Source: a virus
Taxonomy: Duplodnaviria; Caudoviricetes
Virus record (IMG/VR): IMGVR_UViG_3300022916_000588
Span: 1 to 39,697 of that record
DNA length: 39,697 nucleotides
Reading direction: 5' to 3' (one strand)
Made by a program: the position numbers and the translations under genes. This document shows, piece by piece, positions 2 through 37,978 of this stretch. Position 1 is the stretch's first letter, and each line of letters opens with the position of its first letter. The notes beneath the pieces were generated by a model that saw nothing but the letters and a program-made list of their open reading frames with translations, was not told where the DNA came from and did no database searches.

Positions 2-235
2 GTAAATACAGGAGCTGATAGAATAGAACCCACAAACACTTGTTGTGGAGTTGATGTACCTAATCCCTGTACTTTTAATACTCATCATTTTAAGAAATTA
101 AAACAAAAAGGAATACCAGATGACATGATAGTAAAGACATGTTATGATCATTCTGGAGATTATCAACAGGGCATTGATATAATAACTGGAAAACAATCAA
201 ATTTTTACACCCTTAAAGATGCTGGATTATTATGA
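2..235 (+). CDS. C-terminal fragment of a gene truncated by the window edge, possibly a radical SAM (SPL-like) protein
   Basis: Frame 2 is open from the edge (VNTGADRIEPTNTCCGVDVPNPCTFN...KDAGLL*). Its TGA overlaps the next ATG (ATGA at 232-235). The TCCGV motif resembles the late ICCEV motif of the radical SAM at 2586; that assignment is inference. Confidence 0.6.
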   Translation, partial: VNTGADRIEPTNTCCGVDVPNPCTFNTHHFKKLKQKGIPDDMIVKTCYDHSGDYQQGIDIITGKQSNFYTLKDAGLL

Positions 236-1167
236 AATTTATTGAAGACAAAGGATTCATGGGGCTTTCTAAAGAAGAAAAAACCATAACAGGAAAAGCC
301 ACTGCTGAGGTGGTTGTTATAGGAGCTGGAATAATAGGAGCTACCATAGCAACTGCTTTTCGGAATAAAGGGCTGAGTGTTTTAATTATAGATAATGATG
401 ACCCAGAGTCTGGAACAAAGCCCTGTGGCGGTCTTATAAAACCAAGCCCTTTAATGGGATTGGCTAATGAACAAATCAATGCTAGTTTAGATATGCTTGA
501 TTCCACTTTTGGATTAAAGAAGGAAACAATGATCATCAAACCTAGTGGTAATTTAATTAAAGCATCCGTACGGGGTGTTAACATGGACTTAATCTTTTCA
601 ACTGTAAAATCCTATGGACATGTTTGGAAAATCGAAACATCACCCAATAAAGTGTACTACATACCCAAAGACACCCAACATACTGTTGTGGTAGATACTA
701 AGATTATTGTAATCGCGGCTGGTATGGGTTGTCAAGTTCTTCTTCCTCAGCTATTTAGAAAGGATGGATTGGTTGCTAAAAGAGGATTCTCATTTCACTT
801 CAAAGGACAAGTCCAAGAGCAATTTGTTAAATTCTGGGCACCCTATAAACAAATAACTATCCATAACACCACCTATGCTGGGGAAAAGATAATTTGGGCA
901 GGAGATGGATCAGCATTGACTCTTCCTAGTTGGTATGATGGTAGGATTGATGAGGCATTTACTAGAGTGGTTAATGAACTCCCAAGAAAATTTAAGCTAT
1001 TAAGAACTGTTAGAGGGCTTCGGAGCTTTCATAGAAATAAGAAATACAAACCCTGTTATCTAAATAAGATTGATGAGGGGTGTTGGATAGCTACGGGCAG
1101 TGGAAAATTTGGTTTAATTTCAGCTGGGTACTCAGCTGTAGAAATTTTGAAAGATGAACTTGGATAG
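232..1167 (+). CDS. FAD-dependent oxidoreductase (DAO/glycine oxidase-like family)
   Basis: Rossmann motif VVVIGAGIIG...VLIID, IVIAAG, and C-terminal IATGSGKFGLISA typical of DAO-family flavoproteins. Confidence 0.85.
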   Translation: MKFIEDKGFMGLSKEEKTITGKATAEVVVIGAGIIGATIATAFRNKGLSVLIIDNDDPESGTKPCGGLIKPSPLMGLANEQINASLDMLDSTFGLKKETMIIKPSGNLIKASVRGVNMDLIFSTVKSYGHVWKIETSPNKVYYIPKDTQHTVVVDTKIIVIAAGMGCQVLLPQLFRKDGLVAKRGFSFHFKGQVQEQFVKFWAPYKQITIHNTTYAGEKIIWAGDGSALTLPSWYDGRIDEAFTRVVNELPRKFKLLRTVRGLRSFHRNKKYKPCYLNKIDEGCWIATGSGKFGLISAGYSAVEILKDELG

Positions 1168-2131
1168 AATAGAAAAAGTAATAATGGACTGTTATTGGTA
1201 CAGACCTATTGAAGAGGAGTATCATGATGTTTTTGATTTCATACAAGGTGTTTTATGGGCAGAACTATGGAGAGGAACAATTTTTGAATATATAGATGAA
1301 CATGGGCGGGAAGCTCTTTATCGACTTTGTAAAGAATACCCAAGATTTGTTAACCGTGATTCTGTAATAGATATCATACAACACAATCCCTTCTCTGCTA
1401 TTAAAATAGGAGTGGGTACATATAAGTGGAAAGGTGATGAAGCCCCAATCCTTAAAGCTTTAGAATGTGGTGTTAAATTTATAGATACAGCTCCAACTTA
1501 TGGATTTGGGAAGGTTGAAAAAGCTTTATCTACCATTGATTTAAAAGAAGTCATATTGGGTTCAAAAATTCCTAAAAATTATATGACCAGAAAAAACATC
1601 CACTCCTCCTTAAAAAGAACAAAAGACCTATTCCCAAAAAAAGACATACACTACCAACTACATTGGCCAAACAATAAGTATGGATTGTATGATTCTTGTA
1701 ATACACTGGCTTTCTTAAAAAGACAAAATAGCATCCCTTCAGTGGGGCTGTGTAATTGTTCAGTACAGCATATAAAATATGCTTTGGGATTTGTAATGAT
1801 TGATACTCTTCAAATCCCATTCAATCCTTTTAGAAAGGAGTTTTTAAATTATCTTATTCCATTTGCGAAAGAGTCAAATATAAGAGTCATAGCGCATAGT
1901 CCATTTGGGCAGGATTTCAAAAAGTTTATGGCTCAGGATAAGAAGAAAGAAATGTTCAGAGTTGCTAAGAAATTGAATTGCACAATACCCCAATTGATAC
2001 TGGCTTGGATTATACACCATGATATTATACCTATTCCCAAGACAAACAGTTCCAAGCATATGGAAGAAAATTTGGATTCAGTTAATTTAAAACTACCAAA
2101 TTGGGCTGTGGAAATAATGAACAATCTTTAG
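1154..2131 (+). CDS. Aldo/keto reductase with ~80-aa N-terminal extension
   Basis: IGVGT, FIDTAPTYG (catalytic D,Y), GSK (K), YQLHWP (H), SVGLCN, AHSPFG, QLILAW, IPIPKT...HMEENL. Confidence 0.9.
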   Translation: MNLDRIEKVIMDCYWYRPIEEEYHDVFDFIQGVLWAELWRGTIFEYIDEHGREALYRLCKEYPRFVNRDSVIDIIQHNPFSAIKIGVGTYKWKGDEAPILKALECGVKFIDTAPTYGFGKVEKALSTIDLKEVILGSKIPKNYMTRKNIHSSLKRTKDLFPKKDIHYQLHWPNNKYGLYDSCNTLAFLKRQNSIPSVGLCNCSVQHIKYALGFVMIDTLQIPFNPFRKEFLNYLIPFAKESNIRVIAHSPFGQDFKKFMAQDKKKEMFRVAKKLNCTIPQLILAWIIHHDIIPIPKTNSSKHMEENLDSVNLKLPNWAVEIMNNL

Positions 2132-2134
2132 GTC

Positions 2135-2165
2135 TAAATGAAAAGAATCTTAATTGTATAATATA
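2135..2165 (+). promoter_or_regulatory. Putative phage promoter, copy 1 (TAAATGAAAA-N7-AATTGTATAATATA)
   Basis: Intergenic, contains TATAAT; 24 positions and the spacing are identical to the copy at 10055-10085. Confidence 0.7.
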
Positions 2166-2178
2166 TTAAAAATTAGAT

Positions 2179-2589
2179 ATGTCAGGAAGCAAAAAAAATT
2201 GTCGAATTGAAGACCTTCAAAAAATCTTTAATCAGAAATGGCCTGATTACATAGTTGTGGGCAGTCGCCCCAATGTTAAGGGCTGTGAAGTATATAGGAA
2301 AGCCAAAGGTGATGACCAACCTATATTGTGCCAAAACTTCTCTAAAAACTATGATCTATTTGAAGCGGTACTTGATCCAAGATATGACCCAAGCAAACCT
2401 TGGCCCATTATGGTCGCAGGTTTGTTTGAAGACAATACCTGTCTAATTAGTACAGGTCGACAACGATTAACACTAGAGAAGACACTGGACACAGCTTTAA
2501 AGCTCCAAGAAGTATTAGTGTTATATGACTTACAACTGAATCCTTCTATTATTGACAAACTTAGGAAAATTTATAAAAAAATTAAATGA
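2179..2589 (+). CDS. Hypothetical protein
   Basis: 136-aa ORF downstream of the putative promoter, ATGA-coupled to the radical SAM gene. Confidence 0.7.
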   Translation: MSGSKKNCRIEDLQKIFNQKWPDYIVVGSRPNVKGCEVYRKAKGDDQPILCQNFSKNYDLFEAVLDPRYDPSKPWPIMVAGLFEDNTCLISTGRQRLTLEKTLDTALKLQEVLVLYDLQLNPSIIDKLRKIYKKIK

Positions 2590-3995
2590 ATTATTGGGAA
2601 TTGAGAACCATTGTTAGCAAAATCATACCCCGTATGACCCAGCTAAGCAGTAGCAAGCGCAAAGCTTCTGCTGTAAAGGAAAAAGGAAGAAAAAAGAATT
2701 ACAGCCAATTTAACATTCGACATAATGAGTGGAGGAAGCAAGAAAGGTTATTGAATACAGAAGAGATTAACAGCTTTTTGGAAATCTCTTTGAGGGCTTC
2801 AGCCTGCCCAATGCCTTTCAATATGGACATCTGGGATGGATTGATTTGTCCATTCGCATGTAAATATTGTTTTGCCAATGCCTTTCGGGCTTCCTTATAT
2901 ACTGCTTTTTTTGATAATAGTAAAACCATGGGATTCAGACATTGTAATCCAGATAAATATAAACTGGAAATGGATGGTATGGATAAATTCAGAGGAAGGA
3001 GTTTTGAGGACAAGAAGAAGTTGTCAGGAATCAATAAAGCTTTTGCCTTGGAAATCCCAGTACGTATGGGGATAAGGTTTGAAGATTTCTTAAAGAATGA
3101 AGGCCAAGAGGGTGTTAGTTTAAAGATGTTGGAATACTTAGCTGATATTGAATACCCTGTAATGATAAATACCAAATCTGGATTAGTGGGACAAGAAGCC
3201 TATGTCAAAGCCCTATCTGAGAATGCAGCTGGAGCCGCTGTACATGTTACTGTTATAACCAGTAATGATGTTATCAATAAAAAACTGGAACCGGGTGCAC
3301 CTCCTTTTAAAGAAAGGATGAAAGCTATCAAAGTAATGGTTGCTTCAGGAATAAGAGTGGTTGCCCGTATTGAGCCATATTTATTCCTTCTTAATGATAG
3401 GAAGGAGGATGTTGATTATTATATGGAACAAATGTGGGATGCTGGTGTTAGGCATATAACCTTTGACACTTATTCTTATACAGCCCTGAACCAAGGAATC
3501 AGGCAGAGCTTCATGAATGTTGGTTATGATTTTGATCGAATCTACTTAGCTGGATGTGATAGCCAACCTTTAGGAAGTTTATTGCTGGGTAAATTTATGG
3601 ACTTATTTAAGGAAAGAGGATTTTATTGCTCAACCTTTGATATGGGAAATGTGCCTGATAATCATGATTCTATTTGTTGTGAAGTTGGGGATTGGTTTGG
3701 TGACAATACAAGTTGGAATTATGGAAGTACAGTAATGGCGGCAAGATTTATCCAAGAAAAGAAAGGCACCAATGTTAGTTGGAATATGTATGAAGCCTAT
3801 GTAGATAAACATGGTGGCTTCTTAACTGAACAATTAAGAGAAGAAGTAAAGCTGTTATGGAATCTGGAAGGCAATAATGCTTATAGTCATAAGTGGGCCA
3901 GAGGGCTTACAGCTAATGGAAGAGATGAAGATGGATTGTTATGGAGATGGGATGACACTGATTACAGAACAGATTTATTAAACACAATTATATGA
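2586..3995 (+). CDS. Radical SAM protein, spore photoproduct lyase-like family
   Basis: CxxxCxxC (CPFACKYC), INTKS, LEPGAPPFKERMKAIK...GIRVVARIEP segment typical of SPL-like radical SAM proteins; extra Cys pair (ICCE). Confidence 0.88.
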   Translation: MNYWELRTIVSKIIPRMTQLSSSKRKASAVKEKGRKKNYSQFNIRHNEWRKQERLLNTEEINSFLEISLRASACPMPFNMDIWDGLICPFACKYCFANAFRASLYTAFFDNSKTMGFRHCNPDKYKLEMDGMDKFRGRSFEDKKKLSGINKAFALEIPVRMGIRFEDFLKNEGQEGVSLKMLEYLADIEYPVMINTKSGLVGQEAYVKALSENAAGAAVHVTVITSNDVINKKLEPGAPPFKERMKAIKVMVASGIRVVARIEPYLFLLNDRKEDVDYYMEQMWDAGVRHITFDTYSYTALNQGIRQSFMNVGYDFDRIYLAGCDSQPLGSLLLGKFMDLFKERGFYCSTFDMGNVPDNHDSICCEVGDWFGDNTSWNYGSTVMAARFIQEKKGTNVSWNMYEAYVDKHGGFLTEQLREEVKLLWNLEGNNAYSHKWARGLTANGRDEDGLLWRWDDTDYRTDLLNTII

Positions 3996-4189
3996 AAGCA
4001 ATAATAACAATTGAAAAGATTGATGGTGTGAATAATATTAATGTTAAAAATGATGATTATTCTCCATTTGAATTAGTGGGAATAATGGAATATTTAAAAA
4101 GCACCATATTGAATCATATTGCTTCTCACATAACAAATAGTGACAACTCTAAATTTGAAGATGATGCACAACCTATTAAAAGAAATTGA
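3992..4189 (+). CDS. Hypothetical protein
   Basis: 65-aa ORF, ATGA overlap with upstream gene. Confidence 0.6.
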   Translation: MKAIITIEKIDGVNNINVKNDDYSPFELVGIMEYLKSTILNHIASHITNSDNSKFEDDAQPIKRN

Positions 4190-4367
4190 AAAGTGGAGTG
4201 AGCATTATGATTTCAGTTTTCAGTTTTGGGGCAAAGGACAGAATAATGTCTACATAGAAAGAGATGGTGTGGAATTACAATCCTTTGGAGGAGAAGAAAC
4301 AATTGAGGACATACTCAAGATAGCATTAGACTGGATTAAAAAAGTTAACAAACAAACAAACAAATGA
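4161..4367 (+). CDS. Hypothetical protein
   Basis: ORF track starts at GTG 4140; ATG 4161 preferred; ATGA overlap with next gene. Confidence 0.6.
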   Translation: MMHNLLKEIEKWSEHYDFSFQFWGKGQNNVYIERDGVELQSFGGEETIEDILKIALDWIKKVNKQTNK

Positions 4368-5137
4368 AAATATCAAATTTAATAGAACAGATTTTTGCCC
4401 AAGCTGTCGCACTGGATCAGCAAGGAGGATTGCGCAACACCATTTACGCAATAAAGAATGAAATTTATATTATGAGTTACGATCATACAGTCTTATTAAG
4501 ATTCAGATTGCGTGACTCAGAAATATCCTTTTCACAACCTATTAGTTTCAAGGCTAATGATTATGACAGTAACATCTTTGAAGAGGTGGGTGGTAGAATT
4601 ATATTCCATACTGAGAATGAGGAATACTCAAGAAAGAAGGTATGCGGTACAACGGATCAGACACCCGAAGAGATACGTTCATTGTTTAAACAATATCTAA
4701 CTAAGGAAGCAGACAAAGTCAACTTACAGTTGTCCAAGGATGTGTTAGAGTTGCTTGATCCAGCCCTGAGTCATATAGAGTTTAGTGGTGTGGCTGGTGA
4801 ACCTATGAAAATGGTACAAAGGAATATCTATTCAGGTGGTATTATAGAAATACAACCAAAAGCAAAAGGATTCTTCAAAGCCAGTTTAGAAAAAGACTTT
4901 GGACCAATAGCTTTAAAAACAAATGATTTTAAAGCTTTATTTGCTTTTCAGAACATTCTACAATTTAGCTTTACCACAAGTGAGGAAGAGGATTATGTTT
5001 TGGTGAAGAGTATTGACAAGAACAAACGAGACATGAAAGGTTTGATTGCCTGTTGTGTCTATGATGAATTGATAAACTTAAAAAAGGAGGAAACAACTGA
5101 TGGGAGGAAAAAGCAGAAAAGCGGGCGGGGTGTCTAG
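4364..5137 (+). CDS. Hypothetical protein, possible two-domain sliding-clamp (PCNA/gp45-like) fold
   Basis: 257 aa. The N-terminal helix followed by IYIMSYDHTVLLRFRL resembles the PCNA 'amD.shv.l..l.l' strand pair. Fold call is inference. Confidence 0.45.
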   Translation: MKISNLIEQIFAQAVALDQQGGLRNTIYAIKNEIYIMSYDHTVLLRFRLRDSEISFSQPISFKANDYDSNIFEEVGGRIIFHTENEEYSRKKVCGTTDQTPEEIRSLFKQYLTKEADKVNLQLSKDVLELLDPALSHIEFSGVAGEPMKMVQRNIYSGGIIEIQPKAKGFFKASLEKDFGPIALKTNDFKALFAFQNILQFSFTTSEEEDYVLVKSIDKNKRDMKGLIACCVYDELINLKKEETTDGRKKQKSGRGV

Positions 5138-5276
5138 GAAATTGATTGCCCATATTAAATCAGGTGGTTCAATGACCACTAAGAAAAAGAAGTGTGTATC
5201 CAATAAATATACTACTGATGAAGAGCAAACAAAAAACAAGACTAAACCATTATTTGGAAGTAGCGAAGATGTATAA
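5100..5276 (+). CDS. Small basic hypothetical protein (58 aa, not in ORF track)
   Basis: AGGAGG at 5085-5090, 9 nt before ATG; MGGKSRKAGGVSRKLIAHIKSGG...SSEDV*. Confidence 0.5.
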   Translation: MGGKSRKAGGVSRKLIAHIKSGGSMTTKKKKCVSNKYTTDEEQTKNKTKPLFGSSEDV

Positions 5277-6018
5277 TATAATGCCAAATTTCTTTATGAG
5301 TTTGGCTTATTTGCAAGCATCTAATGCCCAAGCATATACTGAAAATAATTGGATATGGATTGAGGATGAAGATTGGTGTTTATTTCCTCCTCTAAGGACA
5401 GAAACAGAAGTTGGTAAATATCCAGCTATTGAAAAGGTCTGGGCAAGCTTTCTAAACGGAATTATCAATTTAGACGGTTCCTATGCTCCGTATGTGTTAG
5501 ATTGTAATTATATATTCGATCCAGTCCGTTTCCAAGACCTTAGTGGGAAAGAGTGGGCGACATTTAGAAAGAACATCAGGAAGTGGCCCCGTAGAAATCC
5601 AAACTCAGTATATATTTTTGGCAATAATCCAAAGCAAATGCGTACATTATTAGGCATTTGGTTAGAGAAAAAAATGGAAGTTGTAGAGGATGCTGATGTG
5701 ATTTGTAAGCTTATTTTAGAGGATAATTCAAATGTTTTTAAGAAGTGTTTGTATAATTCTGACAACAAATTAGTAGCTATCAACTGTTGGGATTCCAATT
5801 GGAAATACATAAATTATAGGCTTTGTATTACTCTTCCTGATGAGCCTTTTTTAGAGGAGTTTGCTCGATATTCCTTCTATACTGACCCAGTAATTTTAAG
5901 AGAAAAAAAGCTGATAAATGACGGAGGGGATTTGGGGAATTTAGGACTTGAAAAGTTCAAAAAGAAAATGAATCCTGTGTCCAAATTTCCCATCTATTCT
6001 TTGATTAAAAATGGGTGA
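5218..6018 (+). CDS. DUF2156 / aminoacyl-phosphatidylglycerol synthase C-terminal-like (Fem/GNAT-fold) transferase
   Basis: NYIFDPVRFQDLSGKEWATFRKNIRKW and INDGGDLGNLGLEKFKKKMNP match the DUF2156 patterns 'YiY....L..L.Gk.....RN.i..F' and 'iN...DlG..gLr..K..y.P'. Start uncertain (GTG 5194 or ATG 5218). Confidence 0.75.
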   Translation: MKSKQKTRLNHYLEVAKMYNIMPNFFMSLAYLQASNAQAYTENNWIWIEDEDWCLFPPLRTETEVGKYPAIEKVWASFLNGIINLDGSYAPYVLDCNYIFDPVRFQDLSGKEWATFRKNIRKWPRRNPNSVYIFGNNPKQMRTLLGIWLEKKMEVVEDADVICKLILEDNSNVFKKCLYNSDNKLVAINCWDSNWKYINYRLCITLPDEPFLEEFARYSFYTDPVILREKKLINDGGDLGNLGLEKFKKKMNPVSKFPIYSLIKNG

Positions 6019-6181
6019 TAAACTAAAATGAATCTGAATAATTGATATGGTAATTTTATATGGTTTAAACGAATGCTATTTGATGCAGTAACGAAACGGT
6101 ATATTATTACATCCATATCACCAATCTCACTATTGGGTGAATATGAAACAGTTAGAAATGGATAAATAAATAAGACTAATT

Positions 6182-6424
6182 ATGAATAATACAGAAATTT
6201 ATGATAAAATCACAGAGATTTTAATGAGTAATTATTCCCTAAAAAAAGAAGAAATCACTTTGGAAGCAGACTTCAAAAATGACCTTGAATTAGACTCTTT
6301 AGACATGGTTGAATTAGCTATGAAATTAGAATGTGAATATGACATACTAATACCTGATTCAGACTTCTGGAAAGTGAGAACTGTACAAAATTTAATTGAC
6401 ACAATATTAACAAATCTAAATTAG
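6182..6424 (+). CDS. acpP: Acyl carrier protein
   Basis: 80 aa, acidic; ADFKNDLELDSLDMVELAM with the phosphopantetheine-attachment Ser (DSL); IPD....VRTVQNLID. Confidence 0.92.
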   Translation: MNNTEIYDKITEILMSNYSLKKEEITLEADFKNDLELDSLDMVELAMKLECEYDILIPDSDFWKVRTVQNLIDTILTNLN

Positions 6425-6429
6425 AAAAT

Positions 6430-7440
6430 ATGAAAAAAATAGATGTATTAAATGCCTTGGCTATTGTCAAGCCCGGTTTAGCAAATAGTGAGCTTATTGA
6501 GCAAACTACTTCCTTCGCATTTATTGAAGGAAAGGTAGTGACCTACAATGATGAAATAAGTATCAGTCATCCTGTACCTGAAATCAAAATTGAAGGAGCT
6601 ATTAAGGCTGAAGAATTATACCACCTGTTAAACAAGATAAAAAGAGATGAAATCGAACTCGAAATAGTGGGAGGTGAAGTCCAATTAAAGAGTGGTAAAA
6701 TTAAGGCTGGTATTGTTATGCAAAAAGAGGTTATTTTGCCACTGGACGAAATAGAAGAAAAAAGCAAATGGAAGAAAGTTCCTGATGGCTTTTTAGATTG
6801 TATTAAATTTGCTATGGGAGCTTGTGGAAGGGATGCTGTAAATCAACCTGTACTAACTTGTGTACATATATCTAAAGAAGGAGGATACATTGAAGCAACT
6901 GATCGTTTTAAAATAGCCAGAATTGAAGTGGGTGGTGCTATACCTTATGATTGTTTGATACCAGCTTCTTCTGTATCTCAGTTATTGAAATTAAATATAA
7001 CACACATGGCCAAAGGAAGTGGATGGGCTCACTTTAAAACAGATGAAAAAACTGAAATAAGTTGCAGAGTATTTGAAGATGACTTTCCAGACCTGTCTGA
7101 CTTCCTAGCTTTAGAAGGTGAGCAAATACAACTTCCTAAAAGAATTTCAGAAATCTTAGAAAGAGCTGAAGTGTTTAGCAAAAGGGATATTGTATTGAAT
7201 GAATCTGTTAATATCAAAATAACAAATGGTTCCATAACTATAAGAAGTCAATCTGATTCGGGCTGGTTTGAAGAAAAAGCCAAAATAAAATATGAAGGAG
7301 ATGATCTGGAATTTGATGTAGCTCCTTATCTTTTGAAAAACATTATAGAAGAAACCAAAGAGTGTATCGTTGGAGAAAATGCCCTGAGTTTCCAAGGTGG
7401 TGATTGGGTGTACATTTCTGCTTTACATGCCACTAGCTAG
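6430..7440 (+). CDS. dnaN: DNA polymerase III beta subunit-like sliding clamp
   Basis: 336 aa; TYNDEISI, PVLTCVHI, EATDRFKIA, SCRVFEDDFPDL motifs of the beta clamp. Confidence 0.85.
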   Translation: MKKIDVLNALAIVKPGLANSELIEQTTSFAFIEGKVVTYNDEISISHPVPEIKIEGAIKAEELYHLLNKIKRDEIELEIVGGEVQLKSGKIKAGIVMQKEVILPLDEIEEKSKWKKVPDGFLDCIKFAMGACGRDAVNQPVLTCVHISKEGGYIEATDRFKIARIEVGGAIPYDCLIPASSVSQLLKLNITHMAKGSGWAHFKTDEKTEISCRVFEDDFPDLSDFLALEGEQIQLPKRISEILERAEVFSKRDIVLNESVNIKITNGSITIRSQSDSGWFEEKAKIKYEGDDLEFDVAPYLLKNIIEETKECIVGENALSFQGGDWVYISALHATS

Positions 7441-15588: not shown

Positions 15589-16638
15589 ATGACAATCAAA
15601 ACCCTACATATTGAAAACTTCCAAAGCCATAAAGCTTCTACACTGGAATTTGACAAAGGAGTTAATGTGATAGTTGGCAGCAGTGATTCTGGTAAAACAG
15701 CTATTATAAGAGCTATTCGTTGGTTGGTTACCAATAGACCTTCTGGTGATTCTTTTATAAGCCACTGGGCAGAAGAAACAGCTGTGACTCTTTTATTAGA
15801 ATCTGGAACCAGTGTTAGCAAAGTTAAGGGCAAACAAAATAGGTATGAATTAAATGATATTCACTTTACTGCTTTTGGTACAGATGTTCCTCAAGAAATA
15901 AAAGAAGCTCTTAATTTCAATGAAACTAATATCCAACAACAATTGGATCGTCCTTTTCTTTTAGATTCCAGTCCCGGTGAGGTTGCTACCCATTTTAATA
16001 AAATAGCAAATCTGGAACAAATTGATTTGGGAATAAAAACTGTATCAGGAGTTATTAGAAAACTAGAGCAGGATGTTGGTTATAACAAAGAAAGCTTAAC
16101 CAAATACCAAACTGAATTAAAGTCATTCAAATTCCTTGTTAAATTAGAAGCTTCCGTGGAAGTGTTAGAAGGAAAGCAAAAAATGATTAACAGTAAACGA
16201 GCTCAGGTGAAATCCTTACAAGCTCTTATTCTCTCTTTAGAAACTGTTGAAGAAAAAATAAGTCCATTAGTTACTATTATTGAAATCAAACCAAGGGTTG
16301 TTTCTTTACTAAACAAACAAAAAACATTAGAAGAGGAGGAAGCCAAATATGAAATATTAGAAACACAGATTGATGTACTAATAAATGTAAATTCTCAGAT
16401 ACAATTTAAAACAATTGTAATCAAAGCAAAGCCCTCCATTGACTTACTTATAACTAAAACAAAGAAAATCGAAGAGCTTGTGTTTAAAAGAACAGATTTG
16501 AACAACTTAACAGTTGACTTTAGTTTAGTAAGTAAATTACTTAAATCAAAGCTTGAAAAAGTAGAAAACATGAAAGAGGAGTTTGAAGAGCTTATGCCTG
16601 ATATTTGCCCTCTTTGTGAAACTAAAATTAAAAAATAA
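15589..16638 (+). CDS. sbcC: SbcC/Rad50-like ATPase, N-terminal half
   Basis: IENFQSH, Walker A GSSDSGKT, Q-loop QQQLD, coiled coil, ends at CPLC zinc hook; no Walker B. Confidence 0.88.
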   Translation: MTIKTLHIENFQSHKASTLEFDKGVNVIVGSSDSGKTAIIRAIRWLVTNRPSGDSFISHWAEETAVTLLLESGTSVSKVKGKQNRYELNDIHFTAFGTDVPQEIKEALNFNETNIQQQLDRPFLLDSSPGEVATHFNKIANLEQIDLGIKTVSGVIRKLEQDVGYNKESLTKYQTELKSFKFLVKLEASVEVLEGKQKMINSKRAQVKSLQALILSLETVEEKISPLVTIIEIKPRVVSLLNKQKTLEEEEAKYEILETQIDVLINVNSQIQFKTIVIKAKPSIDLLITKTKKIEELVFKRTDLNNLTVDFSLVSKLLKSKLEKVENMKEEFEELMPDICPLCETKIKK

Positions 16639-16968: not shown

Positions 16969-17093
16969 AATGGTTTATAAATAAATATGAACTGATTTTA
17001 TTTATACTTACTGCCCTCAGTATAGCTTTTATGATCTTTTGTATGATCAGGCTTGCTAATAGTAATTTTGTACCAATATACTTAACTCAATAA
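16965..17093 (+). CDS. Small membrane protein (42 aa)
   Basis: MKWFINKYELILFILTALSIAFMIFCMIRL...; single TM helix; ends 1 nt before next ATG. Confidence 0.5.
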   Translation: MKWFINKYELILFILTALSIAFMIFCMIRLANSNFVPIYLTQ

Positions 17094-17094
17094 A

Positions 17095-17610
17095 ATGGAT
17101 AGACGATCATTTTTAAAATCCTCTTTTTTAGCTGGTGTGGCCACAGCCCTTCCATTAGGAGCTTTTGCATCCATTAACAAAATTCCAGAAATAAATAAGA
17201 TGCCTGAGGTGGGGGATGGGAAAGAAGCCAGTGTGCCTTTTGTAGATAGTGATAACACCTGTTATCTGTTGGACAAACATGGCGACTTCTTAGCAATAGG
17301 AAGTTCTGTGGCAATAACCTTTGACAGACAAATGATTGATGTATCCTCCCTTGAAGATGGATGGAACGATTCAGTACCGGGTCGTATGGAGTGGAATATT
17401 GAATTGAATGAGGTCAAGATATTAGAGGAAAAGAAATTGATTAAAAACTTTAAAGATTTTGAAAAATTAGAATGCGTGATTCAAAGAAATGATAATGGTT
17501 CAAAAATATTCTATAAAGGAGAAGGATTTGTTATTGATATAAGCTTCGCACCTCTTTCTGATTCATCCATAGTTCTAAAGGGCAGTGGAGCTTTAACATT
17601 TGAAAACTAA
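17095..17610 (+). CDS. Tat-signal protein with phage tail-tube (TP901-1-type major tail protein)-like domain
   Basis: MDRRSFLK + h-region + AFA is a twin-arginine signal. The mature part (SVAITFDRQMIDVSSLEDGWNDSVPGRMEWNIEL...YKGEGFVIDIS...IVLKGSGALTF) follows the tail-tube pattern and parallels the 28717-29163 protein. Confidence 0.75.
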   Translation: MDRRSFLKSSFLAGVATALPLGAFASINKIPEINKMPEVGDGKEASVPFVDSDNTCYLLDKHGDFLAIGSSVAITFDRQMIDVSSLEDGWNDSVPGRMEWNIELNEVKILEEKKLIKNFKDFEKLECVIQRNDNGSKIFYKGEGFVIDISFAPLSDSSIVLKGSGALTFEN

Positions 17611-17614
17611 AACA

Positions 17615-17890
17615 ATGGGAATTAAAATAAACTGGGAAAAGATAATTGGAATAATATTCATAATATTGTTAAGCTTCTTTATAATGTGTGGCTGTATGGA
17701 AAAAATAGAAATTCCAGAAGGAGGAAAAATGATTGGAATAAAGGTGGATGATGAAAGAGAAGAATGCTGGTTGCGAATAAGGTATTATGATTCCACAATA
17801 AATGATTTCGTTTATGAGTGGGAGGAAATGGAATGGCACCCATGTTTAATGGAACATGCCACAACCCATAGTAAAATTAAATGCCCATAA
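17615..17890 (+). CDS. Putative lipoprotein / membrane-anchored protein
   Basis: Hydrophobic IIGIIFIILLSFFIM followed by CGC (lipobox-like); start TTG 17600 or ATG 17615. Confidence 0.55.
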   Translation: MGIKINWEKIIGIIFIILLSFFIMCGCMEKIEIPEGGKMIGIKVDDEREECWLRIRYYDSTINDFVYEWEEMEWHPCLMEHATTHSKIKCP

Positions 17891-18771
17891 TGGAAAGGAA
17901 AAAGAAACCCATATCAAAACATGTAGATGCTATCTTATGCTCAGATATTCATTTAAGAGAAGACACCCCTGTTTGTAGAACAGATGACTTTCCACAAACC
18001 CAATGGAGGAAGATGAAATGGTTGCGTGATCTCCAACAAAAATATAATTGCCCTGTTTGGCATGGTGGAGATTTATTTCATCATTGGAAAACCAGCCCAA
18101 GCCTATTAACAGCAACCATGAATAATTTACCTAATTTATTTTGTACTGTTTATGGAAACCATGATCTGCCTCAACACAATATACAACTAAGTAGAAAAAG
18201 TGGTTTGTACACCTTATGGTTTGCTGAAAAACTTAAAACCTTTTTAGGCACCAACTGGGGTGGAGAGGTGTATGCTGATAGTGGAATAGAAGTAAATGGA
18301 AGGAGGATATTGATTTGGCATGTATTTACCTATCAAGGAAAAGAACCATGGCCGGGTTGCACTTCTCCAACAGGAAGTAAATTGTTAAGGAAATATCCAC
18401 AATTTGATTTAATACTTACTGGAGATAATCACAAGCCCTTTGTGGAAGAGCATAATGGGAGGTTGTTGGTAAATCCGGGATCACTTATGAGACAAAGAGC
18501 TTCCGAATCTCATAAGCCCCGGATTTATTTGTACCACTCTTTAGATAACACTGTCACTCCTGTTTATGTTCCTATTGATGAGGGTGTTATAACAATAGAG
18601 CATTTAGAAAAGAAGAAACAACGAGATGGGAGGATTGATGCTTTCATAAGTAAGTTGAATGATGACTGGGAAAGCTCTCTGAGTTTTGAAGAAAATTTAA
18701 AACGATTTATTGAAAAAAATAAAACAGATAAAAAGGTTGTTGATATTATAATGAACTCAATAAGCATATGA
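17881..18771 (+). CDS. sbcD: SbcD/Mre11-like metallophosphoesterase nuclease
   Basis: SDIH, GGDLFH, GNHD, WH, GDNH, NPGS motifs. Confidence 0.9.
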   Translation: MPIMERKKKPISKHVDAILCSDIHLREDTPVCRTDDFPQTQWRKMKWLRDLQQKYNCPVWHGGDLFHHWKTSPSLLTATMNNLPNLFCTVYGNHDLPQHNIQLSRKSGLYTLWFAEKLKTFLGTNWGGEVYADSGIEVNGRRILIWHVFTYQGKEPWPGCTSPTGSKLLRKYPQFDLILTGDNHKPFVEEHNGRLLVNPGSLMRQRASESHKPRIYLYHSLDNTVTPVYVPIDEGVITIEHLEKKKQRDGRIDAFISKLNDDWESSLSFEENLKRFIEKNKTDKKVVDIIMNSISI

Positions 18772-18932: not shown

Positions 18933-19161
18933 TGCTTCCAAATTACTAGAGTACAAAAAGAAAATTGAAGAAGCCGAAGCCCTTGTTAATGAGCTTAATG
19001 GAAAAGCAAAGCATCTAAAAGAGGAGCTTACAAATGTATGGCAATGTTCTACTGTTAAAGAAGCTAAGAACAAGCTGGAGGAAATAAATGAGTCAATTGA
19101 TACCCTCCAAGAAGAAATTGACAGTGAAATGGAACTGCTTGAAAAAGAATATGACTTATGA
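18913..19161 (+). CDS. Coiled-coil protein, possibly part of split SbcC
   Basis: Heptad-rich E/K/L sequence, ATGA-coupled to the SbcC C-half. Confidence 0.6.
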   Translation: MERKQNNASKLLEYKKKIEEAEALVNELNGKAKHLKEELTNVWQCSTVKEAKNKLEEINESIDTLQEEIDSEMELLEKEYDL

Positions 19162-19769
19162 ACATAACTGAATTAAGGAATAAACTGGAACGATTCAAAG
19201 GGCAAAAAGCTCAGGTGCAGAAATCTTTACAGGAAACCAAAGAAGTGCTTACTGCTAAAGAAGATGAACTGGACTTAACTATACAAGCTCGTGAAATCCT
19301 AAAACAAGTTGGTTTAAAAACTCAGGAGCAATTACAATACCATATTGGCGATATAACTTCTCTGGCTTTGGGTGCTATCTTTGAAGATGATCCTTATGAA
19401 TTAAAAGTGTCCTTTGTCCAAAGAAGAAATAAGACAGAATGTGATCTATTGTTTGTGAGGAATGATAATGAAATACGGCCCATAGACTCCTCTGGAGGAG
19501 GGGCAGTGGATGTTGCCTCATTTGCCCTACGGGTCGCAAGTTGGAGTATGAAACACCCTAAAACAAGAAACACAATAATACTAGATGAACCCATGAGATT
19601 CTTATCTGAGGACCGTCAGGAACAAGCTAGTAAAATCATAAAAGAAATTAGTCAAAAACTAGGAATCCAATTCATAATAATAACACATGAACCTAATCTA
19701 GCAATACATGCTGATAAGATTTTTGAAGTTAAGATAAGGAAAGGAGTCAGTAAATTAAATAACAAATAA
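19158..19769 (+). CDS. sbcC: SbcC/Rad50-like ATPase, C-terminal half
   Basis: Coiled coil, ABC signature SSGGG, Walker B/D-loop IILDEPMRFL, H-loop IITH, ADKIFEV. Confidence 0.88.
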   Translation: MNITELRNKLERFKGQKAQVQKSLQETKEVLTAKEDELDLTIQAREILKQVGLKTQEQLQYHIGDITSLALGAIFEDDPYELKVSFVQRRNKTECDLLFVRNDNEIRPIDSSGGGAVDVASFALRVASWSMKHPKTRNTIILDEPMRFLSEDRQEQASKIIKEISQKLGIQFIIITHEPNLAIHADKIFEVKIRKGVSKLNNK

Positions 19770-28716: not shown

Positions 28717-29163
28717 CTATGCAATGGAAGATAAGCCACCTGATGATAAAGTGATTTGACCGCTTATCTTGATAGATATATCAGTCATAATTTTATCATC
28801 CATAGCTATGTTCATTGGTAACTCAGTGATGAGTCCTTCAAAATCTAATGCCGTAGCATCATCATCTGGTAATAAAATCTGATAATTCTGCAATGTATCA
28901 TCTTCAAAATCATCTTTCATGATCTCATATGTATCCCTTCGGAATATCATAGAAAGCTCAATGCTCCCTCCATCACGAAGACTTCCGATAAATTCACGGT
29001 ACCCTCCTGTTGAATCAAAAGATGTTACGTCTATGGTCTCACGGCTCATACCCGGACCACTGATTGAAATAATTTCTGCAATTGTTGCCCATACTCCTAC
29101 TGACGCTGAATCATCCCAACGTTTGAATATAGTTCCAATTCCGGAAACAGCTTGACTAGTCAT
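28717..29163 (-). CDS. Major tail tube protein
   Basis: IAEIISISGPGMSRETIDVTSFDSTGGYREFIGSLRDGGSIEL...FEGLITE...ISIKISG; AGGAGG RBS. Confidence 0.9.
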   Translation of the reverse strand: MTSQAVSGIGTIFKRWDDSASVGVWATIAEIISISGPGMSRETIDVTSFDSTGGYREFIGSLRDGGSIELSMIFRRDTYEIMKDDFEDDTLQNYQILLPDDDATALDFEGLITELPMNIAMDDKIMTDISIKISGQITLSSGGLSSIA

Positions 29164-30855: not shown

Positions 30856-31557
30856 TTATATTTTTTGTCTGCTTTTCCAAAGCATTGGATCAATAAAACT
30901 TAACACATCACTATTCCATTCAAGTCCTAACCACTTAATGGTGGCCATCAATTCTGAATAATCTCCATACACCATCTTCTCTGGCCATATTTCCTTGAAC
31001 TGTATTTTTTCCTTCATAGCTTCAAACCTACCTAAGTGCTGATTCACCCACCATTCCCAACCTTCGGCTTCACTCATCACACCTACTTCCTTTTGTATAA
31101 AGGAGTGGTGGAAAGCTCTCATGAATCCTGTCTTTAAACAACTATCAACTATGTCATCTGTTTTCCTCCTAACAATCACCCACTTAGCTTCTGGAAAACA
31201 ATCATACCAGATGGGCCATAACAACCCAATCTTTGGGTCTTTGTACATTATACTTCCTTTTCTGAACCCCTCTTCCTTAAACACTTTTAAAAAAGAGCTT
31301 TTCCAATAATGAGGGGTTTGCAAGGAATCTGTTTTGGGAAGAGGATATTGACCCATTGGGTCAACATTAAGTTTCTTTAAAAAGGGCTTGACCATACTGC
31401 TAATTATTTTATGGTTTTCAAACATACCCTTCTTATTGTTTCTGTTTGGGCCATTCATCTTTCCTCCGAATGCTCCACATTTGTTAATGGAGCCAGCTAC
31501 CATACTGGTACCAGACCTTGGACAACCTGTAATTATGATCAAATTTTTCACTTCCAT
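30856..31557 (-). CDS. Sulfotransferase (PAPS-dependent, P-loop type)
   Basis: 5'-PSB loop IIITGCPRSGTSMV, FEN, YKDP, 3'-PB-like VIVRR...IVDS. Confidence 0.82.
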   Translation of the reverse strand: MEVKNLIIITGCPRSGTSMVAGSINKCGAFGGKMNGPNRNNKKGMFENHKIISSMVKPFLKKLNVDPMGQYPLPKTDSLQTPHYWKSSFLKVFKEEGFRKGSIMYKDPKIGLLWPIWYDCFPEAKWVIVRRKTDDIVDSCLKTGFMRAFHHSFIQKEVGVMSEAEGWEWWVNQHLGRFEAMKEKIQFKEIWPEKMVYGDYSELMATIKWLGLEWNSDVLSFIDPMLWKSRQKI

Positions 31558-32894
31558 TTTTCTACTATTAAAGTGTCATTAACTTCGTGTGGTCTTGGCT
31601 GACCATGGAAGCAAATAACCTGTGCCCCATTATGTTTGTAATCATTCATTAAGAAATCCCTTTTGTAACTGATAACAGATAAGCTTTCTTGTATTTTAAT
31701 TGGATTCTTTCTGGTGGCTGATTTATATGTCTTTTCAATAAAGGTCTGATCACCTATCAAATCCCCACCAGCTTTAGAAAACCGAGGAGCTTTTTTGTTC
31801 CTCAACTTCTCATAGATAAAGGACAAATCACAATCCCAAGTCATTATACCAGACATCAAAAAAGTACTGCCTCTAAAATTGTCCAGCATCCTAAAACCAG
31901 AAAAAGGTTTAAACAAAGAATCTATGCTTTTCAATATTACGGTATCCAAATCAAAATAAACAACCTGCCTACTGTCTGGAAATATACCATGCCTAAATAA
32001 CTCAATCTTGCTCCACCAGCCGGGCCAGTTATTCCTTAATGGTATAACTTCTTCTGGTGCCAATTTTAAAGCCGTAGAATCGGTCAAACATCTGAAATGT
32101 ATTTTCCTTTTAGTATTCTTTTTAATCATGCTCCTGAGCTTGTAAACATACTCAGGGGTGTAATCTCCACCTGTCTTTAAAACACAAACAGCATAATCCT
32201 TTTCTTGGGTTGAATAAACATCTGATAAATTAACTCTTTCAAAAGCTGTGATAGCACTATCTGGATTAACATTTAAAATCTCCACACCTAATCTTTTAGC
32301 ATCTCTAGCAATCTTGGGAAAGCCCTCTGAATGCCTGATAAAAGTTTTTTGTATTTGCGACTCTTTCTTGGGCTTCTTTCCATATAGCTTATGCCAATGT
32401 TGGTCTTTATGATCTTTCAACTTCATATCAAATCCCAATAACATAATCCTTTTAGCTCCCAAATGAACTGCTAAGTTAATAGCTGATGAACCACTATTCC
32501 TATTCCAACGAATCTTAGTTGGATCATCTGACAATCCAAAAGGCTTATCACGATCCACTACTTTGATTCCATAATCCAAATGATTCACTTTTCCTGATAA
32601 AGTAACTAATGTATGATCCAGCTTTACTAATTCATGTAAATGAGTTAAGTAAAAAGGAACATCACCAAAGAATGTAAAATCAATAAAATCCCCAAGCCTA
32701 TAAGCTACATTAACACCAATGACATGCTTATCCCTTAATATATGTAAATATGGTTCATATAATTGAGGAGTGGCCCCGTTGTAGACTGCTTGCACAATCT
32801 CTTCCGGGATATTAAATTGGCCCATCATACTGGGGCCACCTCCAATTATGTAGCAATCGCCACCTTCCCATATTTTAGGAATACACCAGCCCAT
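31548..32894 (-). CDS. Two-domain glycosyltransferase: Maf/DUF115/Cst-like domain + GT-A (GT8-like) domain
   Basis: N-half: IIGGGPS, VIGVN, NSGSSAINLAVHLGAKRIMLLGFDM. C-half: VCVLKTGGDYTPEYV, WWSKIELF, YFDLD (DxD), GDQ, FHGQPRP. Confidence 0.82.
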   Translation of the reverse strand: MGWCIPKIWEGGDCYIIGGGPSMMGQFNIPEEIVQAVYNGATPQLYEPYLHILRDKHVIGVNVAYRLGDFIDFTFFGDVPFYLTHLHELVKLDHTLVTLSGKVNHLDYGIKVVDRDKPFGLSDDPTKIRWNRNSGSSAINLAVHLGAKRIMLLGFDMKLKDHKDQHWHKLYGKKPKKESQIQKTFIRHSEGFPKIARDAKRLGVEILNVNPDSAITAFERVNLSDVYSTQEKDYAVCVLKTGGDYTPEYVYKLRSMIKKNTKRKIHFRCLTDSTALKLAPEEVIPLRNNWPGWWSKIELFRHGIFPDSRQVVYFDLDTVILKSIDSLFKPFSGFRMLDNFRGSTFLMSGIMTWDCDLSFIYEKLRNKKAPRFSKAGGDLIGDQTFIEKTYKSATRKNPIKIQESLSVISYKRDFLMNDYKHNGAQVICFHGQPRPHEVNDTLIVEKWK

Positions 32895-36325: not shown

Positions 36326-36425
36326 TTGTCTTTATTTTTTCAAGTTCTTTAATCTCATCAACCGATAATTTGTTGATACCTTTTACATCTTGTGGTTTGT
36401 ACAAAAATCTGTCAATACGTATCAT
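36309..36425 (-). CDS. Tiny ORF (38 aa) coupled to MuF-ART
   Basis: ATGA overlap with the MuF-ART stop; MIRIDRFLYKPQDVKGINKLSVDEIKELEKIKTNEKKV*. Confidence 0.45.
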   Translation of the reverse strand: MIRIDRFLYKPQDVKGINKLSVDEIKELEKIKTNEKKV

Positions 36426-37978
36426 AATATTTCTAATTCAATTACATAATACATTTCCTCTTGAGTGGCGCCAACTACCTTGAAAGATGTTCCTCTTGGG
36501 AGTAGGATTTCAGCTTCAGTTACTAATTCATCTGGATGTGGTGTGAAATACCTCTTCCCTTTGTTCAAACGTATTTTTAAAACTACATCCAATTGTTGAT
36601 CCATCTGGGCAAAAGACTCAGCTTGGAATTGGGAAAGTGAAGTGGATATGTAACCTTTGTCCGTGTATCCTTCTCCTTTCTTTAAGCTTCTCAAAAATTT
36701 CAAAAAATCATCAGTATCATCATGACTTGCTAATCCCCTGAAAGCATAGCGATCTTGAGCAAATGTATTAGCACCTTTACTTATTGCTGAGTCCATCAAC
36801 TTAATAGCTTCTTGAGCTTCTTTTCCTTCGAATATAGGAACCATGGGTTGATCTAATTGAGTGAGACCTCTCAACATTCTATTCATGTTTTGATCATACC
36901 CTTCTGAAACATAACTATATGATATGTCCTTTTCAGCGGTGGATAATTTCTTAGCTGATTTTGCCCAATTAGCTTCCGCAAATGCTTGGGCTTCTTCATC
37001 CGATTTAAATGACTTTGCATCAAATGATTTTTTTCCACCTACTCTAACAGGAAGACAAATACACCTACAACTAGGATGCTGGGGCACTATTCCTTCAGCC
37101 TGATCTAAAGTAAATCGTTGAAGATGTAAACTCTCACACTGCGCACACACTCTGGAATCCTCAGCTGTTCTAAATTCAGCCTGTACATTAACTCCTTCTG
37201 CACCCCAATTCCTATATTCCTGAATTGTACCCATATGATGGGCACGGATCACTTCTGTTCTAGCCAACATACGGGCTCGCCTTTGGGCTGGAATATACCT
37301 TCCCAGAGTATCTGTCATCCCAAGCCCACTGCTAATAGTAGCATTGATCTTACGGGCTAATAGAGCTGGTCCATCTCCATCAATCATTCCTTGAGCCAAT
37401 ACCCTACTGATTTGTTGGTCCATAGCATCAGTTATTCCTTTTAGCTCATTAAAGGTCCGGGTGTATAACATTCCCACCCTATCTAAATGGAATGGGGTTG
37501 ACATACTAGCTTGGATGCCTCCTGTTTCACTTATTGGTGGAACTTTATATCCAGCATTCTTTAGTTCAGAGCGACCACGCATTACTCCTCTCTTATAACT
37601 GTCAGAAACATACTTGTCTGTCCAAGGGCTGTGTAAAGCTCTTCCACTCTGCTGTATGGTAGTTATCTCTAGCAAACCTTCATTCTGTTGCTGTTTTAAC
37701 CAAGCCATGAAAGCATCCATCTTCTGCCCAGTTGTAGGGAAATCAAAAGCCCTCCTGCCGGGAGCAAAACCCTGCTGAGTGATTAAGTTACTATCTGGAG
37801 AAGAAAGTGCAAATACATCCTGATCCACTATGGCTTCTTTGATAAGCTTCATAAGGTCTTTAAACCTTCTGTTCATATCAGCCACAAATGCATTGCGCAG
37901 TGTTAATGTCCTAGTTGGGTCATAATTCCCAGCCTTGACATAAACATCTACTTCAGTATGTACAGCACATTCACACAT
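36422..37978 (-). CDS. MuF (SPP1 gp7-like) minor head protein with C-terminal ADP-ribosyltransferase domain
   Basis: MuF part: RARMLARTE, DSRVCAQC, PQHPSCRC. ART part: MNRMLRG, AFRG, KGYISTSL, EAEILLPRGTSFKV (R-STS-ExE). Confidence 0.9.
   Translation of the reverse strand: MCECAVHTEVDVYVKAGNYDPTRTLTLRNAFVADMNRRFKDLMKLIKEAIVDQDVFALSSPDSNLITQQGFAPGRRAFDFPTTGQKMDAFMAWLKQQQNEGLLEITTIQQSGRALHSPWTDKYVSDSYKRGVMRGRSELKNAGYKVPPISETGGIQASMSTPFHLDRVGMLYTRTFNELKGITDAMDQQISRVLAQGMIDGDGPALLARKINATISSGLGMTDTLGRYIPAQRRARMLARTEVIRAHHMGTIQEYRNWGAEGVNVQAEFRTAEDSRVCAQCESLHLQRFTLDQAEGIVPQHPSCRCICLPVRVGGKKSFDAKSFKSDEEAQAFAEANWAKSAKKLSTAEKDISYSYVSEGYDQNMNRMLRGLTQLDQPMVPIFEGKEAQEAIKLMDSAISKGANTFAQDRYAFRGLASHDDTDDFLKFLRSLKKGEGYTDKGYISTSLSQFQAESFAQMDQQLDVVLKIRLNKGKRYFTPHPDELVTEAEILLPRGTSFKVVGATQEEMYYVIELEIL

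Follow-up and report, generated by a model that had tools for sequence, protein, structure and literature searches.

A gene outside the virion module of this phage encodes a protein in which a Tat-type leader precedes a predicted tail-tube fold. The family to which it belongs is real, and we did not find its architecture described. Arguing by analogy with known tube sensors and their inhibitors, we tentatively regard the tail-tube domain behind its Tat leader as a bait-and-export decoy for tube-sensing immune receptors, a reading that we rate as possible and short of probable. The window, by which we mean the whole stretch of DNA analysed (39,697 nt), comprises an entire virus record (G000; 39.7 kb) that is about 57% complete.

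Genomic setting of the gene

Replication and recombination genes occupy the + strand of the window and a siphophage virion module the − strand, an assignment made partly by reading of the sequences. The gene at 17095–17610 sits between the N-terminal half of SbcC and SbcD. It thus lies on the + strand within the early-gene side, in agreement with the original prediction, which had placed it among early genes and on the strand opposite the structural genes. The structural tail-tube slot, between the genes for the terminator and the assembly chaperone, is occupied by 28717–29163, and the paralogue lies 11 kb away on the opposite strand. The features considered here are as follows.

15589–16638, + strand: N-terminal half of SbcC (context)
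17038–17070, + strand: Bacteroidota-type promoter-like match, 25 nt upstream of the gene; not above chance and not conserved
17095–17610, + strand: gene for the protein with Tat-type leader and tail-tube fold; 171 aa, beginning MDRRSFLK, with the exact protein on eight contigs
17095–17169, + strand: Tat-type leader, residues 1–25, with RRxFLK motif, weakly hydrophobic h-region, Pro20 and A-F-A at 23–25
17101–17118, + strand: RRxFLK motif (RRSFLK, residues 3–8), read from the sequence
17124–17129, + strand: T6 tract, with a T7 allele that is frameshifted and whose product ends after 27 residues
17170–17241, + strand: Pro/Glu-rich linker modelled at low confidence, residues 26–49; holds the non-conserved M36 (17200), which has an A-rich upstream context
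17242–17607, + strand: predicted single-domain tail-tube/Hcp fold, complete, residues 50–171, from AlphaFold and structural matches
17320–17394, + strand: long beta-hairpin, residues 76–100, with conserved stem and variable tip; 25 residues in this copy
17881–18771, + strand: SbcD-like nuclease (context)
19158–19769, + strand: C-terminal half of SbcC (context); relatives mostly have the tube paralogue gene just upstream of it
28717–29163, − strand: real tail tube gene of the phage (PF16460/PF06199/PF16461, phrog_158)

The division of SbcC/Rad50 into two genes around SbcD is conserved in relatives, and the gap is a hot spot of small variable genes. A promoter upstream of the gene was considered and rejected. 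The motif used, which we take to be of the Bacteroidota type, was found once against 2.5 matches expected and occurs in 2 of 17 upstream regions. The single RNA run examined gave no coverage of the gene. Among the seawater metagenome runs listed, 13 of 24 contain at least half of the sampled words of the record, and eight of these 13 are possible sources.

A tail-tube fold visible at the profile level

The resemblance to the tail tube had originally been drawn by eye from three segments. When the family profile was aligned with that of the phage's own tube family, hhalign paired these same three segments (P 96.8%, E 3e-10, 98 columns), and the family profile also matched the monocin tube PDB 8qhs (E 2.5e-12). 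The family alignment consisted of 106 rows chosen by hand from profile matches and loci, leaving out true tubes, leaderless matches, fragments and near-duplicates. Using this alignment, with no true tubes in it, AlphaFold gave a pLDDT of 83, with 86–98 per 10-residue block from residue 51, compared with a pLDDT of 42 from the single sequence. The predicted fold is a beta-sandwich with a long hairpin and one helix. All of the Foldseek matches listed are tail, injection-system or Hcp structures (30 at E ≤ 0.001), and comparison by VIA with the monocin tube 9j1j aligned 121 residues over 50–171 (Z 10.5, rmsd 4.0). Consistent with the original prediction, the mature domain thus has a tube fold, with tail-tube/Hcp matches over residues 50–171, and in the model it is a complete tube domain, not a fragment.

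The homology is visible between profiles and is not significant between pairs of sequences, so it is the family profile that settles the likeness to tubes. The paralogue domains are 16–21% identical to the own tube; BLASTP of the paralogue against that tube gave E 3.6, and an HMM built from 49 own-tube homologues missed the paralogue at E < 10. PHROGs returned no match for the protein when this copy was searched alone, Pfam and NCBIfam contained no family over the domain, and PF06199 was reached at E ≤ 0.01 by just 3 of the 106 family members. Single-sequence searches recovered the gene itself or leader-only matches and nothing else, and among cultured phages the only matches were weak ones to LmaA-like tubes (E 0.07–0.1). 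Structure matches in the ESM Atlas point to PF06199, and the feature matches (0.76) serve only as leads.

The hairpin separates the family from true tubes, ranging from 17 to 58 residues in the 106 rows compared with 28 residues in 33 of 33 true tubes. Its stem is kept, with I81 hydrophobic in 92% of rows, an aromatic residue at position 90, E92, Y/F93 and G96. This pattern suggests that a binding surface has probably been kept and tube stacking probably has not. Lumen-side positions are polar or acidic and the net charge of the domain has a median of −7, compared with −12 in tubes, properties that would suit a ring as well as a monomer.

The Tat-type leader

The RRxFLK motif and the AxA of the original prediction are both present in the open reading frame at 17095–17610 (RRSFLK at residues 3–8 and A-F-A at 23–25). 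Tat signals are reported to be marked by a twin-arginine motif, a moderately hydrophobic h-region and a helix breaker 12–17 residues after the RR (PMC7317946). Across the family, R3 is found in 105 of 105 leaders and R4 in 85 of 105, with F6 in 102 and K8 in 83 of the 106 rows. Pro20 is present in 89 of 106 rows, 16–17 residues after the RR, a basic residue follows the proline in 42% of rows, and the best 12-residue hydropathy of the h-region is 1.6–2.6. Curated models scored this leader under their cut-offs, both for Pfam TAT_signal (PF10518; E 4.7e-4, 20.4 bits against 22.7) and for TIGR01409 (E 1, 9.8 bits against 16.7), and at E ≤ 0.01 they scored 3 and 8 of the 106 members, respectively. 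A comparable leader was found in 3 of 1486 candidate ORFs from the record and 11 related records, all of them this gene or its orthologues, where shuffles expect 0.25.

Two features vary. The second arginine is replaced by K, A or S in 17 of 105 leaders (about 15%), and such changes are described as poorly tolerated, though RR is not absolutely required (PMC7317946). A candidate cleavage site is present in this copy after residue 25, at the end of the AxA, but not in most relatives: in 17 of 18, small-x-small sites occur inside the h-region only. Since no peptidase site follows the h-region in these relatives, most may stay membrane-anchored. The linker between leader and domain is 21–49 residues long across the family (median 35).

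Similar leaders also precede unrelated domains (L002, P0118 and P0121). One of these, L002:10001–10831 in another phage, is an unrelated protein of 276 aa that begins with this type of RR leader. A simple pattern search of the retrieved loci for a TatA-like motif found none.

Distribution and gene neighbourhood

A search for other fusions of a Tat leader and a tube domain revealed a family. From 25 related records one orthologue was obtained, a leader scan of 11 of them yielded a second, and profiles then expanded the set to 18 proteins and subsequently to 128 protein clusters at 50% identity. The pattern at the twin-arginine position in these 128 clusters is RR in 88, RK in 11, RA in 2, RS in 2, RG in 1, KR in 1 and none in 23, counts that lean to leader-bearing proteins because the search profile contained the leader. 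The twin arginine noted in the original prediction is therefore kept by most homologues, but a minority have RK, RA or RS or are leaderless. The 23 clusters with no leader pattern include four weakly matching ordinary tubes, truncated calls and real leaderless members.

The first six relatives seen in context all have the gene in a RuvC-SbcC(N)-SbcD-SbcC(C) cluster, where it lies upstream of SbcC(C) at a distance of up to about 200 bp. We then scored the best 80 of 109 SbcC(C) loci. Fourteen contain a leader with a tube domain (one of them a sister contig of the record studied here, cut inside the leader), two an intact leaderless tube paralogue and two a leader with a possibly permuted domain. 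Grouping near-copies left 67 loci with 10, 2 and 2, respectively, and many of the loci are short, so that these gene counts are lower bounds. The gene is absent from five records that are complete or more than 85% complete (G001, G005, G008, G015 and G016), indicating that it is optional. Leaderless copies with C-terminal extensions are found at L208:5526–6104, in the usual slot upstream of SbcC(C), at L160:7317–7835, and in P0098, P0110 and P0135.

Several variants were noted in these loci. L198:4389–4847 and L193:4414–4881, which belong to a 15-member cluster, combine an RR leader with a domain ending in a tube-hairpin-like motif. Their reading as circularly permuted tubes is only suggestive, with a permutation score of 3.9 bits that was equalled by 3 of 500 shuffles and an hhalign match to the leader only. 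The family member at L144:2629–3210 has a hairpin almost identical to the motif found in the real tubes of this phage group, which suggests recent copying from the tube gene. In G023 (L127:12372–16061), two long proteins (427 and 801 aa) start with tube-like domains, and a normal tube is present besides them. A tree of 54 rows (every third family row, five syntenic extras, nine tubes and four other tubes) was mostly unresolved, with neither a single origin nor a donor shown, and the paralogue branches are long, partly because 50% clusters were sampled.

Selection on the leader and a segregating frameshift

Leader and domain differ greatly in conservation. Mean pairwise identity in 19 rows is 0.74 for residues 1–20, 0.58 for residues 21–31 and 0.28 for the domain. 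A comparison of G009 with G013 shows 12 synonymous differences and one non-synonymous difference in codons 1–31, and identity is 97% for the leaders, 93% for the real tubes and 24% for the paralogue domains. The synonymous excess together with this contrast in identity indicates that the leader is translated and constrained and that the domain changes, or is swapped, quickly. This bears on the start site. Against the internal M36, which the original prediction had raised as an alternative, stand its lack of conservation and the selection acting on the leader; they settle the matter only in part, as its start context scores better than that of M1 (5.7 vs 3.8). A GTG start at V15 was rejected for its poor context (−10.6).

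The T6 tract within the leader is polymorphic. Five of the eight runs examined cover the site. T7 is the consensus in the contigs of three of these, X7 (depth 9.6), X8 (11.3) and X9 (4.8), and T6 in X6 and X11, so the population carries both intact and leader-broken alleles. In the protein collection the full form is present on eight contigs, and 157-aa calls on 3 + 2 contigs are probably calls on the frameshifted allele. Judging from the sequence, a start at M36 might give a leaderless product in both alleles. We considered a conserved phase-variation switch and rejected it, as the T tract is absent at that place in 14 relatives; we therefore read T7 as a segregating loss and not as a built-in switch.

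A possible bait-and-export decoy and its rivals

Any model has to account for the use of Tat in place of Sec, a retained fold with a loose hairpin tip, rapid change, patchy occurrence and the leaderless copies. In the reading that we tentatively favour, the product would be made early, judging by the position of its gene, and would fold in the cytoplasm. There it would capture those host immune receptors that sense free subunits of the tail tube and bring the captured receptors to the Tat channel. The complex would then leave by piggyback export or stay at the membrane, and the real tube, made later, would escape detection. The timing, the engagement of Tat, a Bacteroidota host, the partner and the outcome are the parts of this scheme that we infer. 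Tube monomers are reported to trigger immunity through Avs16, which binds them via the stacking hairpin (bioRxiv 10.64898/2026.01.04.697583), and the defence NADase DSR2 is described as a sensor of the tube that likewise binds it through the hairpin and is blocked by a phage-made mimic inhibitor, DSAD1 (PMC10973363). Tat is likewise described as exporting non-covalent partners along with the subunit that bears the signal (PMC4273604), and such piggyback export would explain the use of Tat instead of Sec. A stem that is kept while the hairpin is free in length counts for the bait-and-export reading, in that the binding surface is kept. Intact leaderless copies in 2 of the 80 loci and several among the 128 clusters suggest that a cytoplasmic version is useful. 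The fast change of the domain, its optional presence and the segregating frameshift fit a host-dependent conflict gene.

Size is the chief obstacle to this reading. A hexameric tube ring measures about 90 Å. Tat substrates are reported to span 20–70 Å (PMC4273604), and the ring would thus be larger than these. One Avs7 monomer complex is given as about 250 kDa (bioRxiv 10.64898/2026.01.04.697583), and since a sensor–target complex may exceed the size range of Tat, what actually happens may be tethering to the membrane. Three further points stand against the bait-and-export reading: a domain that copies the tube fold faithfully might set off the sensor rather than block it, DSAD1 needs no leader, and fast evolution, patchiness and the frameshift are no less compatible with superinfection exclusion. 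A broader version, which we consider rather unlikely, is that phages turn the folded-protein exporter into a waste chute for host immunity, with an exchangeable bait domain (tube or permuted tube). Such a mechanism, if true, would amount to a new and general class of anti-defence.

Superinfection exclusion at the envelope, proposed in the original prediction as a periplasmic decoy, is a strong rival even though we judge it somewhat unlikely. Here Tat would put the tube domain in the periplasm, where, by binding a rival phage at its tape measure or tail tip, it would stall DNA entry. The same judgement covers the corollary that the domain would be released in this copy, whereas in most relatives the uncleaved leader and the Pro-rich linker would tether it. 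The conserved Tat features, the length of the linker and the still polar lumen face are consistent with envelope exclusion, and SieA-type inner-membrane proteins are reported to block injection and to be less than 30% identical between types (PMC10883804). However, the leaderless copies, one of them at the usual slot, could not reach the periplasm and point to a cytoplasmic target, the RK, RA and RS leaders (17 of 105) should export poorly, and the use of Tat and not Sec is left unexplained. An integrase, moreover, is present in just two of five complete relatives, which counts against exclusion, although lytic phages also carry out superinfection exclusion.

A poison or mop for competitor tail assembly appears quite unlikely. 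Where a second phage or a satellite infects the same cell, the protein would co-assemble with this competitor's tube subunits or tail chaperones, which the leader would then clear from the cytoplasm. The fold and the hairpin stem are kept as this would demand, the 16–21% identity to the own tube could spare self, and forms that lack the leader could be dominant negatives. With identity to any tube so low, however, co-assembly is doubtful, and an early product would still meet the own tube later.

It is more doubtful still that the leader is the active part, occupying or jamming the host Tat translocase as a form of host takeover, with the tube domain as stable folded cargo. The far better conservation of the leader than of the domain (0.74 vs 0.28) and the similar leaders ahead of unrelated domains (L002, P0118, P0121) argue for this, but more than 100 clusters retain the tube fold, and some copies are intact yet leaderless. 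The trans-envelope conduit of the original prediction, taken as one for DNA, or a minor virion part, is very improbable: a complete tube fold whose inner face is acidic-polar would suit either, but the gene is optional, lies outside the virion module and is frameshifted in 3 of 5 covering runs, and its stacking hairpin varies from 17 to 58 residues. A decaying duplicate without function, as the common frameshift allele and long branches might suggest, is the least credible reading given purifying selection on the leader, the intact fold and a conserved gene slot in many lineages.

Relation to known systems

The siphophage tail tubes of the TP901-1/lambda-like type (PF06199; MttP 8QHS/9J1J; RcGTA 6TBA; own tube) share the core fold, the hairpin stem and the acidic domain with the paralogue, which differs in that a Tat-type leader with its linker replaces the N-arm, in its location in the early cluster, in its optional presence and in its variable hairpin. 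T6SS Hcp has the same fold (Z 8–10), here in the absence of any T6SS context, and to our knowledge Hcp is made without a signal peptide. Envelope superinfection-exclusion proteins such as T5 Llp and T4 Imm, and P22 SieA (PMC10883804), are likewise small, variable accessory phage proteins directed to the envelope; we know of none that is built on a virion fold or employs Tat. In the favoured bait-and-export reading, occupation of a tube-sensing receptor would be shared with DSAD1. The latter is reported to be a monomeric mimic, and the available text mentions no export signal for it (PMC10973363), whereas the protein here is a true tube homologue with a Tat-type leader and a putative inhibitor. 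It is predicted to work like a tube mimic or an exclusion factor and is a candidate member of either class. With Tat substrates as described (PMC7317946, PMC4273604) it shares the RRxFLK motif, a weak h-region and Pro 16–17 residues after the RR; it differs in being phage-encoded, in the lack of AxA after the h-region in most members and in scores below the Pfam and TIGR cut-offs, and its export is predicted only.

The original prediction knew of no system of this kind, and a literature search, outside which most subscription journals lie, likewise returned no description of a phage Tat substrate with a tube fold. Tat substrates encoded by phages were also absent in general from the papers searched. 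In the available part of a 2026 Tat review phages appear only in other contexts (PMC13673990), a 2026 anti-defence editorial makes no mention of Tat or the periplasm (PMC13728456), and a Klebsiella screen, by its accessible text, sought Tat signals among its phages without success (PMC13412088). No curated family covers the domain, yet it forms about 100 clusters at 50% identity. Under either leading reading this would be a new use of the tail-tube fold and of the Tat pathway. The RR, RK, leaderless and frameshifted versions found in nature are ready-made controls, and the readings are testable with known tube-sensing receptors.

Host and other observations in the window

A Shine-Dalgarno motif precedes 7 of 44 genes, six of these in the virion module. 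Few Shine-Dalgarno motifs are the rule in Bacteroidota, and from this scarcity the host is probably a member of that phylum. Bacteroidota are reported to have TatA and TatC (PMC3827258). Comparison by capsid, tube or SbcC identified no close cultured relative, and a scan of a collection of host-genome contigs with the family profile found no copy. A scan for SbcC identified eight MAG contigs, three labelled Bacteroidota/Bacteroidales and five labelled otherwise, of which two carry the gene; with mixed labels and the gene only on 1-kb contigs, the binning is unreliable.

Three other regions of the window were noted by reading their sequences. Positions 232–7440 hold FAD-oxidoreductase-like, aldo-keto-reductase-like and radical-SAM-like genes, two clamp-like genes and an acyl-carrier-like gene, and this cluster is possibly a DNA modification or host-metabolism module. 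On the − strand, a head-morphogenesis-like protein (36422–37978) seems by eye to end in an ADP-ribosyltransferase-like domain. Within the virion module, between the capsid and head–tail genes, sulfotransferase-like and glycosyltransferase-like genes were recognised by eye at 30856–32894 (− strand).
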